Shown here: positions 15,990 through 57,574 of the stretch, in pieces
Layout of the letters: each line of letters begins with the position of its first letter
How positions within the stretch are numbered: the first letter of the stretch is position 1
Assembly: GCA_001244265.2 (NCBI GenBank)
Contig: CDLV01000006.1
Span: 2,108,001 to 2,172,000, forward strand
Origin: Microbotryum violaceum
Taxonomy: Eukaryota
Direction of reading: 5' to 3'
Length of the DNA: 64,000 bases
The notes under the pieces: generated by a model
What the model was told of the DNA's origin: nothing
The model's input: the letters and a program-made list of their open reading frames with translations, nothing else
The model's database searches: none
Program-made: the position numbers and the translations under genes

Positions 15990-17424
15990 GACGAATGCGC
16001 TCGAACATGCGGAGTCCAGCGCGGCACAGACTCACCGCGTACATGGGATTCCAGCGCTTGGACTCCGTTGCGGCCAGATTGTCGAGGAACATTCGAAGCG
16101 GCGTGACAAGCAGCAATTTCCCGCGCGCCAGAGTGCGATTGATCGAAAAGAGAGGCAGGGGGCGCTCAATGTCGACTGCGTCGGAGCTACGGATGTCTAG
16201 GGAATAGAGCGACCGCTGTGGTTACGAAGCAAGTCGCGCTACAGATGCGACCTGGCAGGAATACTCACTTATCCGTGCCGGAGACCCCTTTGGCCCAATG
16301 TCGTGAACTGGTTGACCGAGAGCCGAGACAGGAACCAGGCACCAGCTCGCTGGATTGAAATGGGGCTATGGCTCGATGCCGCGGCCGGCGGCCGGTACGA
16401 CGACGTCGATTCGAGAACCCTGGGCGACGGTGGCCGAACAAACGATAGCGTGGACCTCGCCTTTAAAAGACACAAAACATTCGACGAACCCGTATTGAGT
16501 ACTCCCTTTCAGCGTGACGATCTCATCGACAAAGTAGTCAGCGAAGGAGTAGACTCCACGGACCCGGGTCATGGGGGCGGAGAAGCGAGGGGGAAGGTCA
16601 CTGAGCCAGCGACGACTGTGGTGTGCCGAGTCGACGTGTGCGGGTTGAAGAATAGGGTAGTGCTCCATCGCTCGTGCGGTGGACGGCCTTGCAAAGTGCT
16701 GGGCGGGTGGGTGTGCTCCGCGTGTCTAGCGTCAGCGCGCCAGGTTGGACACGTTCGAGAGGCGACTCGAACTCACTGAAGCGATGTAGTCCCGAGGCGA
16801 CACGACGTATACCGACCGGTCCTTGTCCTTTTTCATCTCGATGGCCCTGAACAGCGGGACCTCCTTTTCCAACTTGTCAAGAAAGGTTCTGACAGTGGAC
16901 GCGGCCGGAAGCCCAGTGGTGCCGGTGGCCGCCGCAAAGTCGAGCAAGTCCTCCAGCTCTTGCACACCGACTCGACGTTTGAGAGACCGCACAAAGAGAA
17001 CAATAATCATCATCTGCGTCAAGCCGTCGCTCAGCCCGGTGTCCCCGACAGCTCGTAGTAGTCAGAACGTACCAACAGGTCGGGGAACGGATAAAAGGGA
17101 TGGTCGGGAGGAGGCACCGTCGACGAGTTGCGAGCACCTCGTCGATACCGTGGTGGAGACCGGGTCTCCACTGTGAGATACGAGTCGGATTTTGATCAAT
17201 ACCGGTGCTCGAGAGGGATAAGTCAGCGACTGCTCACCTCGACTCGGTTCGAAGGCGTCGCCGGGAAGCTCGTCCGAACCGGGCTGGACGTTGGCGAGAC
17301 CGGCGTCTCCGTCGAAGGGGTTGGAATTAACGAGTTCGATCTCGCTGCATTCATGCTTATCGTCGGAGTCTTCTTCGGAGGCCGCGTAAGCTTCGGTATC
17401 GAACGACTGCGATGCGTTGGGCAC
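15990..17424 (-). mobile_element. Truncated CACTA/EnSpm(CMC)-like transposase N-terminal region
   Basis: HSRRWLSDLPPRFSAPM...DYFVDE and PLRMFLDNLAATESKRWN...RAGL resemble the basidiomycete transposon family with the L(Y/F)xDDxSGNxSKKWN...aGLP motif. Recognised by eye, not searched. Confidence 0.5.
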
Positions 17425-18648
17425 TCAGCCCTCAGCACTCAGGAGGGATCAGCGCCATTCCAATTACGTCACGGGCGTACCGGTGTCTGATACGTATCCT
17501 GCTCCCACACACCCTGCTCGCACCCTAGCTCCGTACTGTCCACCCCTTGCTCGTCTGTTGAATCCAGGAAGGTATATTTGGCCAACGCGGGGGCGGAGAC
17601 GGCCCCGCGTCCCTGGCCCACGCCGGATACGTTCGCTTGGTGTTTCCCTGAAGCGGCATGCTTGATTGCACCGCTTCTCCTCAGACGCCCGAGCCACAGT
17701 ATTTGCACACGAATCCGATGGCTGATCGAACGGAAGAAGTTTGGATGACGAAGTCTGCGTGGGTTTGGCCAAGCGCAGCCCGCCCGACACGAGTCAGCTG
17801 TGCTGCGGCCCCGCGTTTGCGTATGGTGGATCAAGGGTTCGTTCAGGCGCTGACCTTTCTCGAGGATGGCGCCTGGGTCCATGATTAAGGGCGCGCCGTC
17901 CGGAATGTGGGGCACTGAGGACGAACACGACGCACGGCGGAAAGGCGGAAGGGGGACCAGGTGTGGGCGTCTCGCCGAACTGAGCCGGGGCGAGGTGTTT
18001 GGCAGTGCCTGGAGGTGCCTGGCGGAGCGGAACTTTCGGCCAAGCGGCCATTCGTCGGAGTCAGCCTGTGACCATCTTCACCGAGAGGCACCCAGGGGCC
18101 ACGAATTTCGGCTTCGGACGTGCTGTGCATCCAAGATCTCTCATCGCCGAGAGTCCCCGACCACCTGGGACCAATGAGACTATCGGGTGTACCGTTTCAG
18201 GATGATCTTGTATTTGGCGGCCGCCACAAGGAATCTATGCCGGGCCTACGTTGGTGACCGCAAAGGCTCTGCAGCGTATCCACCTGGCTTCCATGAAATT
18301 CATCTTTATCAAACCTATACGGTTCGCCATAGCGTGACTATGAGATGTCCACCTCGAGGCCATACGGTATGCCCATACAGCGCAAATGCGGGAAGCTACA
18401 TGGAACCTGCGCGAGATTCCAATGGGGCCCGTCTAAGTCCAAACCCGGTGGCCATGTGGGTGAGCGCGCTGGATCTCGATGGAGTCGGCGCGGAGCTCCC
18501 ATGGACACGCGCGAGTCGATTCCATGCCGGTCTGCAGGCTGAGCCCCACGCAAATCCCAGGCGGAGGCCAGGAGCCGGGCCCGCCCATGCAGAGCCCATC
18601 AGTTTCGCGCGGCGATGTGTAAGAAGTGGGTTACGGAGGCGCCATCTG

Positions 18649-18748
18649 ACCGCAGTTGCAACCGCAGTCGCAACCGCGCTAACCGCAGTTGTAGTAGATC
18701 AAGTGATTGCGGTTACACTTTTGTGACCGCGGTTGCAACCGCACCGTG
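18649..18748 (-). repeat. Subterminal ACCGCA/TGCGGT repeats ending in a CAC terminus (probable CACTA-like element end)
   Basis: Several copies of (A)ACCGC(A) in both orientations. The minus strand begins CACGGTGCGGTTGCAACCGC at 18748, upstream of the transposase-like gene. Confidence 0.5.
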
Positions 18749-18782
18749 ATTTGGCCGACTTGAAAAAGGAAACTCCTATTGG

Positions 18783-20201
18783 ATGGACAACAACAACAAC
18801 ACCAACAACGCCAGCCATGCTGCTATACCACCTCTTCGCCCTGACCCTCCCGATCCTCCCGGCCAAGCCCCCGCCACCACCACCAAATCATACTCCGCCG
18901 CGGTCGGCGCCCGCTCCGCTGCGAAGCACGGAAACGCCACCGCCAACGCCTCGACTGCCGTCGCCGCCCATCCACTGATGCACAACATCGAGAATTGTGT
19001 CATCATCAACACCCCACCCTCAGCCTCGGTCGAGCAAGTCCTCCTCGCGCTTGACAAATACTACCCTGGCCTTACCGGCGCAATGCCATGCGTCATCAAG
19101 GGTCAGCGCGGCCTCCGCTTTCCCAAGGCCGCCGATCTCGACACCCTGGTGGCCAACGGCCTCACTGTTGGCAAGACTCTGTACAAAGTCGAGAAGCTGT
19201 ACAGCTCTACTAGAGGAGGTGTTGTACAATGCACCCTTACGGGCTTTTTCTCCGACCCCGAGGGCCTCTGCCTATTCGATGAGCAGATCGCTGCCTATGG
19301 CACGGTCCTCCGTCGTCGCATCCAATACATTGGAAAGACGAAACACATCTCTGGGGTGTACGACTTTATCCTTGCCCTTAAGGATGTAGATGTTTTGCCC
19401 CCTGCCTCACTTTCTATTGCTCGTGACGGTGTCACTGAGCGAATCCCACTGAGGATCACCGGTGGCATGCGCCACTGCGTCTTCTGCCGTTCCGCGGCTC
19501 ACGTCCGTAAGGATTGCCCCGTCGCCCCGGCGTGCAAATCCTGCGCGAGCACCTCGCACGCCACCCAGCACTGCCCGGCCCGTCATGTGTCGAGCCTCCA
19601 GGGACCCCCACGTCACGTGCCCCGCAAGCCTCCACCGTTACCACCGCCGCCCCCGCCGCCGTGTCCAAGTCGATCTCCCCGGCCTCCGCCCACGACCGCA
19701 CGACCAAAAAACATCGAGTGGAACAGGATCTGGCTGCCCAGACTGAAGATCTGTCCAACAGAGCTCAACCCGATTCTCTGTCGAAGAATGCCCGCCCGAG
19801 TTCTCCTTCAATGTCCCTTGCAAAACTGCCACTCCTCCTGCCCCCAGCCTGCCTCCAATCAGGGAATTGCCTACTCCCTCGTTGAAAAATCCTCCGAGTC
19901 CCCCAGCTCAGAGACCACCTCTCCATCCCCAAGCCCTCCTCTGGCCACGCCAAAGTCGATCATAACTCGATCCAAGTCGATTGCCGCCCTCTCCAAGCCA
20001 GCCACTCGTGAAGCCCCTCCCACTGCGCCTGCCCTCGAAGCCTCCGAGCCGAGCCCCGAGCCGTCTTCGCCCACGCTGTTGCCCTCAGCCGCGCCCAAAG
20101 CCCGACCCGATGACGCCGACACCGACGACGAGGCCGAAGACCAAGAAGCACCTCCTAAGGACGTGGAAGACGCTATGGACCAAGATGATGAGCACAACTA
20201 A
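18783..20201 (+). CDS. LINE ORF1 (Gag-like nucleic-acid-binding protein)
   Basis: Zinc knuckles CVFCRSAAHVRKDC and CKSCASTSHATQHC. The ~19610-19880 segment matches copy 2 in another frame (compensating indels). The stop overlaps the ORF2 start. Confidence 0.85.
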   Translation: MDNNNNTNNASHAAIPPLRPDPPDPPGQAPATTTKSYSAAVGARSAAKHGNATANASTAVAAHPLMHNIENCVIINTPPSASVEQVLLALDKYYPGLTGAMPCVIKGQRGLRFPKAADLDTLVANGLTVGKTLYKVEKLYSSTRGGVVQCTLTGFFSDPEGLCLFDEQIAAYGTVLRRRIQYIGKTKHISGVYDFILALKDVDVLPPASLSIARDGVTERIPLRITGGMRHCVFCRSAAHVRKDCPVAPACKSCASTSHATQHCPARHVSSLQGPPRHVPRKPPPLPPPPPPPCPSRSPRPPPTTARPKNIEWNRIWLPRLKICPTELNPILCRRMPARVLLQCPLQNCHSSCPQPASNQGIAYSLVEKSSESPSSETTSPSPSPPLATPKSIITRSKSIAALSKPATREAPPTAPALEASEPSPEPSSPTLLPSAAPKARPDDADTDDEAEDQEAPPKDVEDAMDQDDEHN

Positions 20202-23200
20202 AATCCCAAACGTGTCTTTTGTTGCTGCCAACGTGCAGTCAATCAATGAAGACCGTAAGCGTGCCTCTCTTTTCTCCAATCTCCGCTCCCATAACGCCGA
20301 CGTCTTTCTCCTGAGCGAAACTGGCCGACCTTCCCCGAAAGGGTGGCCCAGTGGACTCAGGAGTGCCAAGACTTAAAGCTCTCCGCTCTTTTCACTCCTC
20401 TCAACAACACTGCCATACTCTGGAAGAGCGACTCTATGGTCATCACTATTGATCCCGAGTCACCTCCAAACACTCTTTGTGCCTCTTTCTCTTTCCCGGA
20501 CCGAGTCACCGACGCCACCTTTCGTGTGGGAGACTCAAAAATCCGGGTTGTATCAATATACGCGCCTTCCTCCGACAAGCCAGACAAAAAGCGTTTCCTC
20601 TCAGATCTCAGCACCGCCCTCCGACAAGTCGTGCGCGACGACCCCTCGCCGCCTGTGCTCCTAGTCGGGGGGGACTGGAATTGTGTTGAGTCCCAACCCT
20701 CGATTGGAGAACCAAAACGGGACGAATTATGGGGGCCAGGAGATGCGCGACCTTGCCACGGCCAACAACCTCTTTGACGCCTATCGGCTCCATCATCCCA
20801 AAGGACGAGCCACGACGAATCGCTCAGCGCCCGGCACGTGCCGTCGCCTTGACCGCATCTATGTCTCGCCTGATTGGGTCGACCTCTTCCATGATCACAA
20901 AATTTGGGCTCCTGTCCTCAAATCGACGCACTCAATGGTTGCGGCACGGTTCCAAGTGCCGGGCGCAATCGACATCGGTCCGGGCAAATTCAAGCTGGGT
21001 TTGCACGTGATCGAGGGCAACGCGACCTGCGAGTACCTCACCTCCATTGTCCGCACCCTCTACAACAAAGCCCTCCTCCAGACGCCCAACGATCCATCAG
21101 CAGCTTGGACGTCCACCAAACAACACTTGCTGCCCGAGCTGCAGGCTCTGGCCCGGACTTTCGCTCGGTTCCGTCGTGGCGGGTCGGAGCAAGAGAGGGC
21201 TGACCACTCGCGCTACGGCGCGGCCCTGCGGTCCCGCCTCGACCCATCTCTGGCGGGTCCCTCTTCCATCTTTGTCCGCCTGCGCAAAGTGCGAGCATCC
21301 GACCTGATCCCTTCGCTCACGGTCAACGATGTTGTTCATTCCAACCCTGATTCGATGCTCGGAGCGGCCAGCGACTACTTCGAGCGGGTCTATGAGGACC
21401 GCCCCATCGATGACGCGGCCCTGAAGGCAATCATCGACGGCCTCGCTTCAACTCGCCTCTCCCCGCGCGACTCACTCAAGCTCGAGGAAGCGTACCCGTT
21501 GGAGGAGATGACAAAGGCTCAAGAGGCGTTCCTCTGCGCCGTTGGCCTCGGCCCCGGAGCCCGCCAATGGTACCGAGCGACCTACACCAACCAATCTGCC
21601 TCGATCCTCCTCAACGGTTGGCTCTCTGCCACTTTCGACATCCTGTCGGGCGTTCGGCAAGGTTATCCTTTGGCTCCGTCTCTCTTCGTCCTGGCGATCG
21701 AAGGTTTTGCCTGTCAGATTCGATTGAGAGTCAAGGGCATCGATATTGCGGGCCTCCAAAACGTTCGCGAACTCCTTTTTGCCGACGACGCTTGCTGCGC
21801 ACTCCACAACCTCTCGGACCTCGACTACCTCAATCGGGCGATCGAGCTTTACGAACGGGCAAGTGCCAGCAAGCTCAGCAACGTCACATCTTTCCTCTAC
21901 CCCCTTGGAGCTTTTTGGGATCGGTCGATCGCCCCAGATCTCGGGACCTGGTGTCTCAGCGATTCGCAGTTTCGCTACCTTGGTATTTAGGTCGGGGTGG
22001 AGATCGCCGAGGATGCGGGCTGGGAAGATGTCAAGGCCTCGACCATCGCTCGGATACGCTCGATTCCGATGTACGATCTCCCATATGCAGCCAAGTGTTC
22101 GATCATCAACATCTAATGCTACACAAAGATCTTGTACTACAGCCGATTCCTTCCCGCCCCCAAGAGCGTTGTCAAGGAGATCGAGGAGGCCGCCATGCTC
22201 GCCATTCACGGTCGAGCTTCGGATGGTACTCAGCGACGTCCGAAGGTCTCCCGGTCGCGCCTCTGCACCCCTCTTGATCACGGCGGCTTCGGTTTGATTG
22301 ATCTGCCTCGGCGTCTAGCAATCGATCACGCGAAGTGGGTCTTCCAGCTCCGGGCCCCGGACGGCTGCTTCACACGCCACCTCTTTGACATCCGCATCCG
22401 CCTCCAGGCACCAAACAAACCAACCCCTTTCACCTTGTCCAGACCGGCCCCCAACCAGCATTGTTGCCCTTGGATTTGGATCTGGTGGGCTTACTTTTGC
22501 CATCCTCCCCAAAGTGGGACCATGCGGTGAGAAAAACGACAAAACTTCTTCCTGCTCGTTGGGTCCGATACTTTGAAGCCTGGGCATTGGTGACCACGCT
22601 CAATCCCCCGGAACTCTCCAAGAGCCAGAACCTCGAGCAATGGGCGACGCACGTACTCTATTTCCCAGCGGGCCACGGAATCCAACTCTCGGTAATCCCG
22701 ACGCTTTTTCGAGGGCCCGATGGCGAGGTGATGACCCCGTCTTCGTTTGTGAACGCGTCCAAACGCCACCAAGTCTTCATCTTCCCCCCTATCTTCCCCA
22801 AGGGACACCAGAAGGTATTCGATCTGCCTGAGCAACGCTGGAACGCTTGGTGGAAGGCTTTGCGCAAGGTTCGCCGGGTTCACTCGGACGCCGAGGATAC
22901 CGGCCACCTTCTCTCCCTGGGGTCCCTCCATCCGGGAAGCCAAGTCGTTTCCCCAACCAGCCCACATCCCAACAATCGATCTACCTCCTGTGTGATGTGC
23001 CTCTCGGAAGCACCCGAGTGCCTGGTTCACCTCGCGGTCGGCTGCCCATTTGCCCGGCGCCTCTGGTCTGCTCTGTCCCCGACCTCCCACCCAGTCTTTG
23101 TGGACTTTGTATGCCCGGTCGTGTCTCGCTCGGAACGTCGACTTGTAGAACTACGAGTCCTCTTCTTTCACTCGATCTGGAAGCTCTGTCGCCGTCGTCG

Positions 23201-23297
23201 ATTCTCGTCGGATCTTTTGGAACCGATCACCGAAACGGAGTTCGAGGGGCTTCGAGCCTCTATCCAGGAGTCCAAGGGTCGCCTAGTGTCTCTGTAA
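20188..23297 (+). pseudogene. LINE ORF2 (AP endonuclease, partial reverse transcriptase, zinc finger), disrupted
   Basis: NVQSIN, DVFLLSET, SIYAP, GGDWNC, RLDRIY, STH; GVRQG.PLAPSLF, FADD, FRYLG; CVMC...ECLVHLAVGC. Frameshifts and stops; the SPGPDG..DFEKAYD block is absent. Confidence 0.9.
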
Positions 23298-23477
23298 GAC
23301 ACCCAAGGGGTTTTTTTTTAGTGGGTATGGTTGATCCTGGTTCAGGGTCAATGAGTCCTACACTACTGGCTTCTGCCAGTGTGTGTAACAGCATTCCCTC
23401 CGACTTTTCCGAAGATTTCTAGGTATTAATATAATTATAATGTTAATGAAGTCTATCAAAAAAAAAGGGTGACTTGC

Positions 23478-23990
23478 GGGGTGACTTTTCAATCAAAGCG
23501 CATGCAATTGCTCGAGTACCTAGAATGTCTACCACGTGAAAATGGATGAGTGGGTTCGATCACTATATCTCTTACCCTCGGACCGGGTTGAATAGCAAAG
23601 ATGGCATGTGCGTGCAAGCCCTTCTTCCGAACAAGATGGCTCGGCGGTTTCCTTTACCAGTGCCGGGTGACTGTCCAATCAAAGCGCACGCAATTGCTCG
23701 AGTACCTAGAATGCCTTCCACATGAAAATGGGTGAGGGGGTTTGAGGAATATAGAGAATGTATTTCCTACCTTTGGACAGGGTTGAATAGCAAAGTTGGC
23801 ATGTGCGTGCAAGCCCTTCTTCCGAACAAGATGGCTCGGCGGTTTCCCTTACCAGTGCCGAAGGTCATTTCAGTCAAAACGCATGCAACTGCTCGAGTAC
23901 CTAGAAGGTCTGCCCCGTGAAGATGGGTGAGTGGGTTCGATCACTACAGAGAATGTATCTTCTTCCAAACAAGACGGCTGGGCGGTTCAC
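23478..23990. repeat. Imperfect tandem repeat, ~190-bp unit, about 2.7 copies
   Basis: CAATCAAAGCGCA(T/C)GCAATTGCTCGAGTACCTAGAA...AACAAGATGGCTCGGCGGTT recurs at ~23490, ~23677 and, diverged, ~23871. Confidence 0.85.
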
Positions 23991-48052: not shown

Positions 48053-48276
48053 TGTAAGGGGATGCCTTACAGAACAGCCCTATAAGTAGCCTCTGAGTAG
48101 CTAGAACTGCCGAGTTCTAGTTTTTATTATTATTACTGGGGCTCATAAATTGCAATCCTTCGGGTTGGCTGGGACCGCTACAAAAGAGCTAAAGAGTCTA
48201 GTCACGACTTGCTTTTAGTCTAGTGGTCAAGAACGACAGATTGTATTTTATGCACATCAGAGGCGCATATCTTACA
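48053..48276. mobile_element. Solo LTR (224 bp) with a perfect 5-bp TSD
   Basis: TGTAAG...CTTACA termini. ACCCC at 48048-48052 and 48277-48281. A related copy lies at 57431. Confidence 0.9.
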
Positions 48277-49539: not shown

Positions 49540-51220
<1,681 letters not shown>

Positions 51221-51788: not shown

Positions 51789-54700
51789 TTTTTTTTTATC
51801 TAATAGATTTCATCAACAGCATATTTATATTAATGCCTAAAAATCCTCGGAAAAGACAGAGGGAATGCAGTTAAGCACACTGGCTAGGCCAGTAGTGTAG
51901 GACTCGTTGACCTTGGAACAAAATCAACCATACCCACTAAAAAACTCCTTAGGTGATTACAGCAAAACCAGTCGTCCTTTGGACTCCTGGATGGACGCGC
52001 GGAGCTCCTCGAATGCCGTTTCGGCGATCGGCTCCAGAGGATCCGACGAAAATCGGCGGTGACGAGAGAGCTTCCAGATCGCGTGGAAGAAGAGTAGACA
52101 CAGCTCGACGAGTCGGCGTTCCGAGCGAGAAACGACCGGGCACACGAACTGAACAAAGTCGGGGTGTGGGAAAGGAGTGAGCGCAGACCAGAGGCGGCGG
52201 GCAAACGGGCAACCGACCACTAGGTGTGCCAGGGTCTCCGGAGCCTCCGACAGGCACATGACACATGCGGTAGATCGATTGTGGAGAAAAGGGCTGTTTG
52301 GAGAAGCGAGTTGGCTACCTGGATGAAGTGACCCCAGGGAGAGGAGGTGGGCCGTGTCTTCGGCGTCCGAATGAACCCTGCGAACCTTGCGTAGCGCCTT
52401 CCACCAGGCATTCCAGCGTTGCTCAGGGAGACAGAAAACCCTCTGATGACCGACAGGGAGGATAGGAGGGTAAAGGAAGGCTTGGTGGCGTTTGGACGCG
52501 TTCACAAACGAATACGGAGTCATCACCTCGCCATCGGGTCCTCGGAAAAGCGTCGGGTTCACCGAGAGTTGGATTCCGTGGCCTACTGGGAAGTAGAGGA
52601 CGTGTGTTGCCCATCGCTCGAGATTCGGGCTCTTGGAAAGTTCGGGGGGGTTGAGCGTTGTCACCAAATCCAGGCTTCGAAGTAGCGGATCCATGGTGGA
52701 GGGAGCAGCGCCTTTGTCTTCCTCACCGCGCGTTCCCACTGTGGAGGAGGGTGGCAAAAGTAGTCCCACCAGATCCAGACCCACGAGCGACGATGCGGGT
52801 TGGGGCCCGATTTGGGCAAGGTAAAGGGGATGCGTTCGTTCGCCGCCTGAAGGCGAGTGCGGATGTCGAAGAGGTGCCGAATGAAGCAGCCGTCCGGGTC
52901 CCGAAGATGCAAGACCCACTTGGCGTGATCGATCGCGAGACGCCGAGGTAAGTCGATCAAACCGAAGCCACCGTGGTCGAGAGGGGTGCAGAGGCGCAGG
53001 CGAGAGACCTTCGGGGGTTTCTGAGATCCGTCCGAGGCTCGACCGTGGATAGCGATCATGACCACGTCCTCGATCTCCTTAACAACGCTCTTGGGAGATG
53101 GGAAGAAGCGATTGTAGTAGAGAATCTTCGTGTAGCAGTAGGTATTGATTATCGAACATTTCGCTGCGTACGAAAAGTCGTACATCGGGATCGGGATGGA
53201 TCGTATCCGGGCGACGGTCGCGGACTTGACCTCCTCCCAGCCCGCATCCTCGGCGATGTCCACCCCAACCTGCACTCCCAGGTAACGAAACTGCGAGTCA
53301 CTGAGACGCCAGGGCCCGAGGTGTGAAGGGATCGGACGGTCCCTGAATGACCTGAGGGGGTAGGGAAAGATTTGGCGTCGCTGAGCTTGCTGGCACTTGC
53401 CCGCTCGTACAGCTCGATCGCCCGATTGAGGTGGTCGAGGTCCGAAGTGTCGTGGAGAGCACAGCAGGCATCGTCGGTGAAGAGAAGTTTTCGTATGGTT
53501 GGGAGCCCCGGGCTCGCGATGCCCTTGACTTGTGATCGTATCTGTACGGCGAAGCCCTCGATTGCGAGAACGAAAAGCGACGGAGCCAGCGGATCGCCTT
53601 GTCGAACTCCCGAGAGGACATCGAACGCGGCCGAGAGCCATCCGTTGAGGTATATCGAGGCGGATTGGTTTGTATAAGTCGCTCGGTACCATTGGCGGGT
53701 TTTCGGGCCAAGGCCAACGGCGCTGAGGACGGCATCGATGTACGCGTGGGAAAGACGGTCGTAAGCCTTCTCAAAGTCCATCACTGCGAGCAGACCGGAC
53801 ACCTGCTCTGAACCCGGGAGCCCAGGATCCATGAGACACTGCACCTCGGCGATGTTCGTGCCAATCCAGCGGTTCGGAACGAAACCGCGCTGGGTCGAGC
53901 CGATCAGGGTCTCGAGCAGAGGGGCAAGGCGCTGGTTCTGGGCTTGGGAGATGATGCGATCATCAGCGTTGATGAGTGAGATGGGGCGTTTGTTCACCAG
54001 CCGATCCCTCTCGCCGCGCTTGTGGATGAGGTGGATGTGGGCAGTGTGGCGGGCCGACGTTCGAGAACTGGCGTCGTCGGTGGGGATCGAGTTGATGACG
54101 TCGCGGAGGATGGGGCCTGTGGCTGTCCACGTTGCGCGGTAAAACTCGACCGGGAGACCGTCGGGTCCAGGCGAGGAGTTCGACTTACACGCCTCTAGTG
54201 CCTTTGTCATCTCCTCTAGGGGGTACGCTCCTTCGAGCTTGTCCGAATCGGCATGGGATAGGCGAGTCGAGGCGAGGCCGTCGATGATCTTCTCCAAGGC
54301 GTCGTCATCGATAGCGCGATCCTCGTAGACCCCTTCGAAGTACTTGCTAGCGGCTCCAAGCATCGAGTCGGGGTCGGAGTGGACGACATTGTCGACCGAG
54401 AGGGAAGGGATGAGGTCGGATGCGCGCACTTTGCGTAGGCGGATGAAGATGGAAGATGGGCCCGCGAGGGAAGGATCGATGCGGGACCGCAAAGCCGCGC
54501 CGTAGCGCGAGTGATCTGCCTTCTCCTCCTCCGATCCTCCACGTCGGAAGCGGGCAAGTGTGCGAGCCAGAGCCTGAAGCTCGGGCAGCAAGTGTTGTTT
54601 GGTGGACGTCCAAGCTGCTGATGGATCGTTGGGCGTCTGGAGGAGGGCTTTGTTGTAGAGGGTGCGGACAATGGAGGTGAGGTACTCGCAGGTCGCGTTG

Positions 54701-56950
54701 CCCTCGATCACGTGCAAACCCAGCTTGAATTTGCCCGGACCGATGTCGATTGCGCCCGGCACTTGGAACCGTGCCACAACCATTGAGTGCGTCGATTTGA
54801 GGACAGGAGCCCAAATTTTGTGATCATGGAAGAGGTCGACCCAATCAGGCAAGACATAGATGCGGTCAAGGCGACGGCACGTGCCGGGCGCTGAGCGATT
54901 CGTCGTGGCTCGTCCTTTGGGATGATGGAGCCGATAGGCGTCAAAGAGGTTGTTGGCCGTGGCAAGGTCGCGCATCTCCTGGCCCCCATAATTCGTCCCG
55001 TTTTGGTTCTCCAATCGAGGGGTTGGGACTCAACACAATTCCAGTCCCCCCGACTAGGAGCACAGGCGGCGAGGGGTCGTCGCGCACGACTTGTCGGAGG
55101 GCGGTGCTGAGATCTGAGAGGAAACGCTTTTTGTCTGGCTTGTCGGAGGAAGGCGCGTATATTGATACAACCCGGATTTTTGAGTCTCCCACACGAAAGG
55201 TGGCGTCGGTGACTCGGTCCGGGAAAGAGAAAGAGGCACGAAGAGTGTTTGGAGGTGACTCGGGATCAATAGTGATGACCACGGAGTCGCTCTTCCAGAG
55301 TAGTATGGCAGTGTTGTTGAGAGGAGTGAAAAGAGCGGAGAGCTTTAAGTCTTGGCACTCCTGAGTCCACTGGGCCACCCTTTCGGGGAAGGTCGGCCAG
55401 TTTCGCTCAGGAGAAAGACGTCGGCGTTATGGGAGCGGAGATTGGAGAAAAGAGAGGCACGCTTACGGTCTTCATTGATTGACTGCACGTTGGCAGCAAC
55501 AAAAGACACGTTTGGGATTTTAGTTGTGCTCATCGTCTTGCTCCATAGCGTCGTCCACGTCCTCGGAGGGCGTTTCTTGGTCTTTGGCTTCTTCGTCGGC
55601 ATCTTCGTCGGCGTCGGTGTCATCGGGTCGGGCTTTGGGCGCGGCTGAGGGCAACGGCGAGGAGGGCCCGGGGGTCGGCTCGGAGGCTTCGGGGGCAGGC
55701 GTAGTGGGAGGGTCGTCACGAGTGGCTGGCGTGGAGAGGACGGCAATCGACTGGGAACGAGTGACGATCGTCTTTGGCGTTGGCGTGGCCGGGGGAGGGC
55801 TTGGGGGCGGAGGGTCGTCTCCGAGCTGGGGGACTCGGAGGATTTTTCAACGAGGGGATGGGTAGTTCCCTGGTTGGAGGCGGGCAGGGGGCGGAGTTCG
55901 GGAGGAAATTAAAGGAGAACTCGGGGCGAGGAGTCTCCGACAGGGGTTCGGGCTGAGCCCTGTTGGACGGATCTTGAGGCTGGGCAGCCAGGTCCTGGTC
56001 AGGGTCCACTCGACGTTTTTTGGTCTTCGACGCGCGGTCGGGTGCGGGTGGCGCAGGGATCGACTTGGAGGCCCGGGGGGCTTTGGTCCACGGTGGAGGC
56101 TTGCGCTGGACGTGACTCGGGAGTGCCGAGGCGGCGGCCCGGGCAATGCTGGCTGGCGTGCGAGGTGCTTGCGCACGACTTGCACGCCGGGCCGACGGGG
56201 CAGTCCTTACGGACATGGGCCGCGGAACGGCAGAAAACAGTGGCGCATGCCACCGGTGATCCTGAGCGGGATTCGCTCGGTCACGCCGTCGCGTTCAATG
56301 GAGATGGACGCAGGAGGCATTTTTTTGGGGTCCTCGAGGGAAAGAACAAAGTCATACACCCCAGAGATGTGCCTAGTCTTGCCGATGTAATGAGTGCGGC
56401 GAAGGAGGACCTTGCCGTACTCGGCAATCTGCTCGTCAAAGAGGCGGAGGCCCTCTACATCGGAGAAGAAGCCAGAGAGGGTGCATTGAATTACACCAGT
56501 AGTGGCTGAGAATAGTTTCTCGACTTGGCACAAGGTCTTTCCAACAGTCAGACCATTCGCGACCAGGCCGGCGATGTCGGCGTCCTTGAGGAATCGGATG
56601 CCGTGTTGTCCCTTGATGACGCAGGGCATGGCGCCTGCAAGGGACGGGTAGTGGTGATCGAGTGCTGAGAGCACTTTCTCAGAGGTGGTCGCGGGAGGGG
56701 TCTTGATGATTACACAGTTGGCGATGTTGTGAATCATCGGGTGGGAGGCGACAGTGGTCGCGGTGGCGGGGGTGGCGTTGGTCTTCGCATGGGACCGGGC
56801 GGAGACGGCCGCGGAGTACGACTTGGTTTGGGCGGTGGCGGTGACGCCGGTGGGGTCGGGAGGACAATTAAGTGCTATAGCACCAGGGGTGGCATTGCTG
56901 GTGTCGTTATTGTTGTGGTTGTTCATGCATGGCACTCGCTGTGTCGATCC
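51789..56950 (-). mobile_element. L1/Tx1-like non-LTR retrotransposon, copy 2 (full length, frameshifted); ORF1 56926-55520, ORF2 55533-51957
   Basis: CCHC ORF1; APE; complete RT (SPGPDG, RPISL, DFEKAYD, GVRQGDPL, FTDD); C-terminal CCHC. Poly(A) appears as the T run at 51789-51797. Candidate TSD GTGAGG at 51782-51787 and 56951-56956. Confidence 0.95.
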
Positions 56951-57051: not shown

Positions 57052-57400
57052 AATACCTAGAAATCTTTGGAAAAGTCGGAGGAAATGCATTTAAGCACAC
57101 TGGCTAGGCCAGTAGTGTAGGACCCATTGACCCTGAGTCAGATCAATCATGCCCGCCAAATCCCCCTTGGGTGATTTACAGAGACACAAGGCAAGCCTTG
57201 GACCCCTGAATTGACGCTCGAGCTCTTCGAGTGCCATTTCGGTGATCGGCTCCAAAGAATTCGACGAGAATCGGCGCCGGCGAACCCTGTGAATCTATCG
57301 ACCGACTAGGAAAAGAAAGATGTTTCTCGGCGAGAGAGCTTCCAGATCGAAAGGAAGAAGAGGAGACGTAGCTCGACAAGTCGGCTTTCCGAGCGAGAGA
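57052..57400 (-). mobile_element. 3' fragment of a third LINE of the same family (ORF2 end and 3' UTR, no poly(A))
   Basis: RASIQGSKACLVSL* and a 3' UTR homologous to 23298-23426 and 51830-51956. Confidence 0.85.
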
Positions 57401-57430: not shown

Positions 57431-57574
57431 TGTAAGGGGATGCCTTACAGGAACAGCCCCCTAAGTAGCCTCTGAGTAGCTAGAACTCTCGAGTTCTAGT
57501 TACGACTTGCTTTTAGCCTGGCGGTCAAAAACAACAGATTGTATTCTATGCACATCAGAGGCGCATACCGTACA
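57431..57574. mobile_element. Solo LTR, internally deleted copy of 48053-48276
   Basis: TGTAAGGGGATGCCTTACAG...GAGGCGCATACCGTACA, about 80 bp shorter. Flanks GCAAA and GCACT match only partly. Confidence 0.8.

Follow-up and report, generated by a model that had tools for sequence, protein, structure and literature searches.

An L1-like LINE copy in Microbotryum violaceum that lacks an intron-like stretch of its reverse transcriptase region, and its probable origin from spliced RNA

A 64,000-nucleotide stretch of the genome of Microbotryum violaceum, a fungus of the anther smuts (contig CDLV01000006.1, positions 2,108,001 to 2,172,000, assembly GCA_001244265.2), here called the window, holds two copies of one LINE (long interspersed nuclear element) family. 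The whole window was compared with itself by blastn, and the two copies were then aligned globally with MAFFT. Copy 1 lies on the plus strand at 18783..23466, as delimited by the self-comparison, the list of open reading frames (ORFs), and tblastn with the Microbotryum gene models P0126 and P0127. It is decayed and lacks a 459-nt segment of the reverse transcriptase (RT) region. Copy 2 lies on the minus strand at 51793..56916 (blastn, translations, and the tree described below), retains this segment, and is frameshifted. It represents a sister subfamily to copy 1 and is placed by the tree with P0012 and P0140. The features of the family are those of an L1-like LINE with an apurinic/apyrimidinic endonuclease (APE type). 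PF03372 and PF00078 (RVT_1) occur in the related models P0126, P0127, and P0134, RVT_1 is matched in both window copies, and ORF1 is separate. Of two protein searches, one returned 249 hits at E ≤ 1e-5 (120 of them listed) and the other 56 at E ≤ 1e-30. Among the 120 of 249 hits listed, the nearest proteins are gene models of M. silenes-dioicae, M. intermedium, and M. saponariae, with an identity to copy 2 of up to 88% over the aligned part, and the distant matches are L1-type proteins of plants and other fungi.

ORF1 of copy 1 is open and encodes 472 aa (18783..20201, plus strand, from the ORF list). A Pfam search with this ORF1 matched no family; in the related model P0127, the ORF1 part contains a knuckle of the form CX2CX4HX4C. 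The ORF2 frames were followed by tblastn of fused gene models on the window, which was used for this purpose only; the ORF1 matches of these models were long, low in identity, and overlapping. ORF2 of copy 1 can be followed in frame 3 as far as about 20750 and in frame 1 beginning at 20683, with frame changes near 20700 and 22450. It meets an in-frame stop at 21988-21990 and is back in frame 3 near 22416-22509. Its C-terminal Cys-rich motif, CX2CX6CX2HX4C, is kept (22989..23045, plus strand, found by regular expression in the translation of 22461-23297) and is also present in P0127. The copy ends in a run of nine A residues that can be read directly in the sequence (23458..23466, plus strand). 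An ORF1 and a poly(A) tail had both been ascribed to copy 1 in the original prediction, and both stand, ORF1 being intact. Both copies are decayed, and copy 1 is not a working gene and is itself unable to make the ORF2 protein.

The central feature of copy 1 is its deletion junction at 21529..21530 (plus strand; raw sequence and MAFFT). Copy 1 reads ...GAGGCGT/TCCTC... at this place, and copy 2, on the minus strand, reads ...GAGGCGT/GTAAGT...GCTTAC...GATGCCG/TCCTC.... The blastn alignment between the copies breaks exactly at 21529/21530, equivalent to 54189/53729, and in the MAFFT alignment copy 1 has one gap only, 459 nt long and facing 54188..53730, which corresponds to 153 codons in frame. 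The exact in-frame loss that had been read by eye is thereby found alike in the raw sequence, blastn, and MAFFT. The missing segment (53730..54188 on the minus strand of copy 2, delimited by sequence, translation, Pfam, and MAFFT) spans the RT stretch from ...CKSNSSPGPDG... to ...VMDFEKAYDRLSH... in the copy 2 translation, and holds the RT motifs through DFEKAYD. Pfam RVT_1 is matched over profile positions 1-189 in copy 2 and 106-174 in copy 1. As had been anticipated for the product, copy 1 retains the endonuclease region and the Cys motif but not DFEKAYD.

The codon at the junction fixes the position of the deletion to the base. All relatives that cover the left boundary read ...A-C-K-S..., those that cover the right boundary read ...D-A-V-L..., and deleted forms read ...A/F-L.... 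The Phe codon TTC joins the T of the Cys codon to the TC of the Val codon. Because every covering relative has a Cys codon at the left boundary and a Val codon at the right one, this codon can only be obtained as T/TC, and the placement is unique. The junction has neither microhomology nor filler. A neighbouring CGT microhomology was considered as the cause of the deletion and rejected, as the original prediction had also argued: it would leave one T rather than the two that are present, and it is at odds with the left-hand Cys and right-hand Val of all the relatives.

The ends of the segment resemble those of an intron. Its first bases form the donor-like hexamer GTAAGT (54183..54188, minus strand, by sequence scan), so that the segment does begin on the donor that had been proposed. 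On the 5124-nt sense strand of copy 2, this hexamer is the only GTRAGT and starts at the first base of the segment, and the chance that a random segment would start on the sole GTRAGT is 1/5124. The whole window contains 62 GTRAGT on both strands. Towards the other end, GCTTAC stands at 53766-53761 of copy 2 and is followed by a C/T-rich run. The CTTAC it contains (53761..53765, minus strand, read from the sequence), whose A precedes the final base of the segment by 32 nt, is a branch-like motif that we take to resemble the fungal branch consensus CTRAY. The segment ends (53730..53731, minus strand, contig variants) in CG in copy 2 and in AG in most of the related cover of four public sequencing runs; the AG dinucleotide has a frequency of 4.5% on the copy 2 sense strand.

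This 3' end was read from contigs of the four runs (X1, X6, X15, and X17) placed on 53300-55000 of the window at a likeness cut-off of 80%. At 53731, a plus-strand G is read as T in contigs, which on the sense strand is a synonymous change of GCC to GCA and gives ...GCAG/TC. This is the very substitution that had been predicted to complete the acceptor, and it is present in all four runs. The AG-making letter has a depth of 2331.5 (two contigs) out of 2458.7 at this place in X1, 86.9 out of 118.5 in X17, 114.1 out of 114.1 in X15, and 110.9 out of 808.6 in X6. The CG form in X1, with a depth of 127.2, is one contig. X1 has contigs one difference away from copy 2, so it comes from the same or a near-identical genome. 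Most related full-length cover ends the segment in CAG, X6 excepted. One X15 contig that is 96.5% like copy 2 likewise has AG at this place, and the acceptor may have been lost in copy 2 or its close kin.

The same junction recurs in gene models of other Microbotryum species. Sixty proteins matched the reference stretch of P0127, non-Microbotryum hits having been excluded beforehand. Eight with fewer than 430 matched residues were dropped (P0017, P0029, P0030, P0033, P0038, P0145, P0146, and P0152), and the final alignment held 50 database proteins and the two window translations. The junction is carried by 11 of the 50 database proteins, all on other contigs and all with the same chimeric Phe codon. 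Ten are M. silenes-dioicae models on 8 contigs (P0013, P0024, P0025, P0028, P0123, P0124, P0126, P0128, P0130, and P0131), and one is from M. intermedium (P0134). The residues that flank the junction follow the full-length lineage of each species. In M. silenes-dioicae, deleted forms read ...QAA/FLCA... or ...QEA/FLCA... and full-length forms ...QAAC...AVLCA..., and in M. intermedium the deleted P0134 reads ...QES/FLRA... and full-length forms ...QESC...AVLRA.... Such lineage-specific residues lie one residue to the left and two residues to the right of the junction. None of the M. saponariae models in the alignment has the junction.

Other skips occur near this region in the same set of models. 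In P0008 (M. saponariae), a skip starts from the same left boundary and stops about 30 residues downstream, at a nearer right boundary; it could stem from use of another acceptor, from faulty annotation, or from a deletion of its own. P0010 and P0136 (M. intermedium) have other skips near the same region, and P0134 has an additional skip of 29 aa.

A tree was built from these gene models and the window translations after removal of the segment columns (52 rows, 885 columns, quick LG+G4 search); two of its rows, P0039 and P0044, are labelled as full but do not cover the boundaries. P0134 falls in a clade with M. intermedium P0018, P0035, and P0142, which keep the segment, and with P0044 (Shimodaira–Hasegawa-like approximate likelihood ratio test, SH-aLRT, 99). 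The remaining deleted rows, copy 1 among them, belong to an 18-member clade (support 98) that also contains 7 full-length rows. In it, P0125, which is full-length, is grouped at support 100 with P0024, P0123, and P0124, which are deleted. The branches marked as changes require at least three changes of state. In the approximately unbiased (AU) test, a single clade of all 12 deleted rows, a group set before the tree was seen, was rejected (lnL lower by 589.1, p 6.4e-5), as was a single clade of the 11 deleted rows other than P0134, a group picked after the tree (lnL lower by 175.2, p 7e-83). Pairwise identities agree with this picture. P0134 shares 79-89% identity with the full-length P0142 of its own species, against 66% with the deleted P0126. 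For P0125, the identity is 95-99% with the deleted P0123 and P0124 and 93.5-96% with the full P0127. At the protein level, the junction is thus shared by gene models on other contigs of two species, as the original prediction asked of independent insertions, and these models do not form one clade.

P0123, P0124, and P0125 also have in common a second gap of about 320-340 aa relative to P0126 and P0127, which reaches from the end of ORF1 to the endonuclease; P0125 retains the RT segment, P0123 and P0124 are without it, and Pfam finds no endonuclease in P0125. This second gap could mark another deletion lineage, or possibly another splice form.

These results support the splicing reading of copy 1. 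On the best explanation, copy 1 belongs, in decayed form, to a class of L1-like copies that recurs in Microbotryum and derives from spliced RNA. It is probable, and we hold it with fair confidence, that the intron-like segment of the RT region is sometimes spliced out and that the resulting RT-less RNA is inserted by an enzyme acting in trans. The full-length element would carry, within ORF2, a 459-nt RT stretch with the anatomy of an intron: a GTAAGT at its start, a CTTAC about 33 nt before its end, and, in most copies, a terminal CAG. A fraction of the transcripts would be spliced there, in frame, presumably by the spliceosome. The spliced RNA would still specify ORF1p, along with an ORF2 protein that keeps both the endonuclease region and the C-terminal Cys motif. 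Having lost the RT motifs through the first catalytic Asp, this product would be incapable of self-copying. The ORF2p of full-length elements would then reverse-transcribe and insert the spliced RNA in trans, and poly(A)-tailed copies at new loci would be the outcome.

Several observations weigh against this explanation. In copy 2 itself the segment terminates in CG, and in X6 most of the depth at 53731 is without the AG-making letter. As DNA, the donor hexamer is known from copy 2 alone (40 of the 311 contig differences are listed), and in other copies the donor is represented by the residues Cys-Lys-Ser only. At 459 nt, the segment is long for a basidiomycete intron. The target-site duplication that had been proposed for copy 1 is not confirmed: no repeat of at least 8 nt links 23455-23499 to 16500-18800, and the sole candidate, the 6-nt GACTTG at 18757-18762 and 23471-23476, is within chance. 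Among the 24 public runs listed, none is on record as RNA and two (X15 and X17) are guessed to be so; contigs of these two (records 12 and 13 of X15, record 22 of X17) cross the segment unspliced. The 459-nt skip is absent among the 7 joints listed for the four runs at the 80% cut-off. Flanks of the copy 1 type are 78-83% like copy 2, close to that cut-off, so contigs with the deletion may fail to be placed and this negative is uninformative either way. Finally, the 11 junction proteins are annotators' gene models known as proteins only, some or all of which could contain predicted introns, and recombination between copies, which is real in this family, can mimic multiple origins. Two further searches were negative: a degenerate junction pattern scanned against metagenomes gave 0 matches, and in a protein search with a 120-aa piece across the junction, aimed at ORFs called without introns on raw contigs, none of the candidates of 66-210 aa scored.

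A stronger version of the splicing explanation holds that the segment is maintained as an intron. The GT..AG at synonymous sites would have been kept across diverged lineages, the endonuclease-only ORF2 product would act as a self-limiting or regulatory isoform, and efficient trans mobilisation would have brought RT-less copies to at least a third of the family. The original prediction had likewise suggested that the isoform could be regulatory or dominant-negative. Given the amino acids, the codons needed for the signals (TGT, AAG, TCN, and GCA) have a joint chance of about 4% from the codon usage of the element. That M. intermedium and M. silenes-dioicae, two deeply diverged lineages, both have the junction hints at maintenance, and no more. 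Taken as a whole, we regard this version as doubtful.

A different history would start from one old deletion that was not made by the spliceosome, for instance a template jump of the RT, and that founded an RT-less subfamily carried in trans; recombination would then mimic polyphyly. Recombination is directly seen in the window. At 20187..21140 of copy 1 (plus strand, MAFFT) lies a tract about 99.5% identical to 55534-54578 of copy 2 (minus strand), with 5 substitutions and 3 small indels in 954 nt and sharp edges, in elements that are elsewhere 75-84% alike. The tract, which ends 389 nt before the junction, suggests that the two inverted copies, some 33 kb from each other, recently underwent gene conversion, or else that an element is recombinant. 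Small deleted groups (P0013 with P0130; P0024 with P0123 and P0124) could also be products of secondary amplification. However, the species-specific residues hug the junction so closely that exchange would be needed within a few bases on both sides, and the AU tests reject one clade. A single non-spliceosomal event would also leave the match to the only GTRAGT and the AG of the relatives unexplained, and the junction lacks microhomology. A single old deletion is accordingly unlikely.

It is similarly improbable that copy 1 is the sole genomic deletion and that the 11 proteins come from full-length DNA in which annotation has predicted an intron. The annotations do contain oddities. Besides the skips in P0008, P0010, and P0136 and the 29-aa skip in P0134, some models, such as P0127, fuse ORF1 and ORF2. 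The junction models are known from proteins alone, and the 7 joints listed for the four runs do not include the skip. Yet gene predictors rarely excise 153 open, coding-like codons, and they would have had to do so in 10 of the 17 models of the M. silenes-dioicae clade, so genomic deletions are the more likely basis of the 11 models. In the window, moreover, the deletion is present in genomic DNA. If the 11 models did contain predicted introns, these would need a GT..AG at the exact bases of a real deletion; such a canonical, base-exact match would favour a splicing origin of copy 1, while removing the evidence for many re-inserted copies. There is also a weak hint from the reads: of a 258-nt contig of X17 (record 24), 192 nt are placed on 54447-54255 and the other 66 letters are loose. 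Judged by lengths, the whole contig would reach as far as the base equivalent to 54189, directly in front of GTAAGT, as would a de Bruijn contig at a point where two continuations diverge.

An ordinary deletion after insertion in copy 1 alone, by replication slippage or end joining, would suit two old, decayed copies and a one-in-three chance of staying in frame, but it is contradicted already by the same junction in 11 proteins of two other species, as well as by the lack of junction microhomology and the start on the single GTRAGT, and can be considered very improbable.

Other repeats surround the two copies. A LINE 3'-end fragment at 57052-57398 (minus strand) adjoins the head of copy 2 and resembles the tails of copy 1 (23124-23427) and copy 2 (51832-52130); together, the fragment and copy 2 are a stack of a LINE on a LINE tail. 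Directly after the A tail of copy 1, tandem units of about 190 nt that are 82-90% alike occupy 23475-23966. Short tandem and dispersed repeats, 81-96% alike, lie upstream of the 3' flank of copy 2 (50017-50726 and 49525-49579/50177-50231). In addition, 48053-48276 and 57431-57574 have two stretches of 70-80 nt in common that are 89-93% alike, one site being 3.5 kb downstream of copy 2 and the other just upstream of it.

The closest known parallel to copies derived from spliced RNA is found in human L1, where spliced integrated retrotransposed elements (SpIREs) have been described (Larson et al. 2018, PMC5860796). SpIREs make up about 2% of full-length L1PA1-6 copies (131/6,609; PMC5860796). 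As in the Microbotryum copies, a GU donor and an AG acceptor that belong to the RNA of the element itself delimit the lost segment, one junction is found at many loci and across subfamilies, poly(A) tails are present, and coding-damaged copies need protein in trans (PMC5860796). The two cases differ in what is lost. SpIREs lose the 5' untranslated region (5'UTR), or the 5'UTR and the start of ORF1, whereas the Microbotryum copies lose the RT core of ORF2 in frame. Since the RT core is what is missing, it is ORF2p, and not ORF1p, that must come in trans. They also differ in apparent frequency, about 2% versus 10 of 17 gene models with the junction in the M. silenes-dioicae clade, the latter being a biased sample. 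Furthermore, SpIREs are human and their splicing has been shown by experiment, whereas the case in Microbotryum, a basidiomycete, is known from sequence.

Cryptic splice sites in L1 RNA have been reported more generally (Belancio et al. 2006, 2008, as cited in PMC5860796). The Microbotryum signals are like these cryptic sites in that they lie inside the coding or leader sequence of a LINE and would divert some of its transcripts. They differ in lying in another element, at another position, and in the kind of evidence, which is again the sequence itself. In mammals, HAL1 elements are RT-less, ORF1-bearing LINE derivatives that keep ORF1 and the LINE ends, are moved by the enzyme of the parent element, and are taken as self-evolving deletion lineages. 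In Microbotryum, by contrast, full-length lineages seem to give rise to the RT-less form time and again, at one exact junction.

Introns are also known in other retroelements. Penelope-like elements keep spliceosomal introns (PMC4209133) and so show an intron surviving replication by way of RNA. They belong to a different element class, however, and the intron-like piece described here is essential coding sequence. Because it is essential, only unspliced RNA can found an autonomous copy. Literature searches turned up no report of fungal LINE copies that had been spliced and re-inserted, nor of splicing inside the RT core, which is not proof of their absence.

In human L1, spliced re-inserted copies are rare, affect the leader or ORF1, and are viewed as dead ends. 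In the Microbotryum copies, it is the RT catalytic core that is removed, so every such copy must have been made by the enzyme of another element. These copies could serve as a natural counter of trans-mobilisation, that is, of weak cis-preference, in a fungal LINE. If the recurrent junction is true, it would provide dated, independent markers of the transcription and splicing of the element in Microbotryum, a model for transposon build-up on non-recombining mating-type chromosomes. If the segment is in addition maintained, the element would continually spawn its own non-autonomous parasites through splicing and weak cis-preference.

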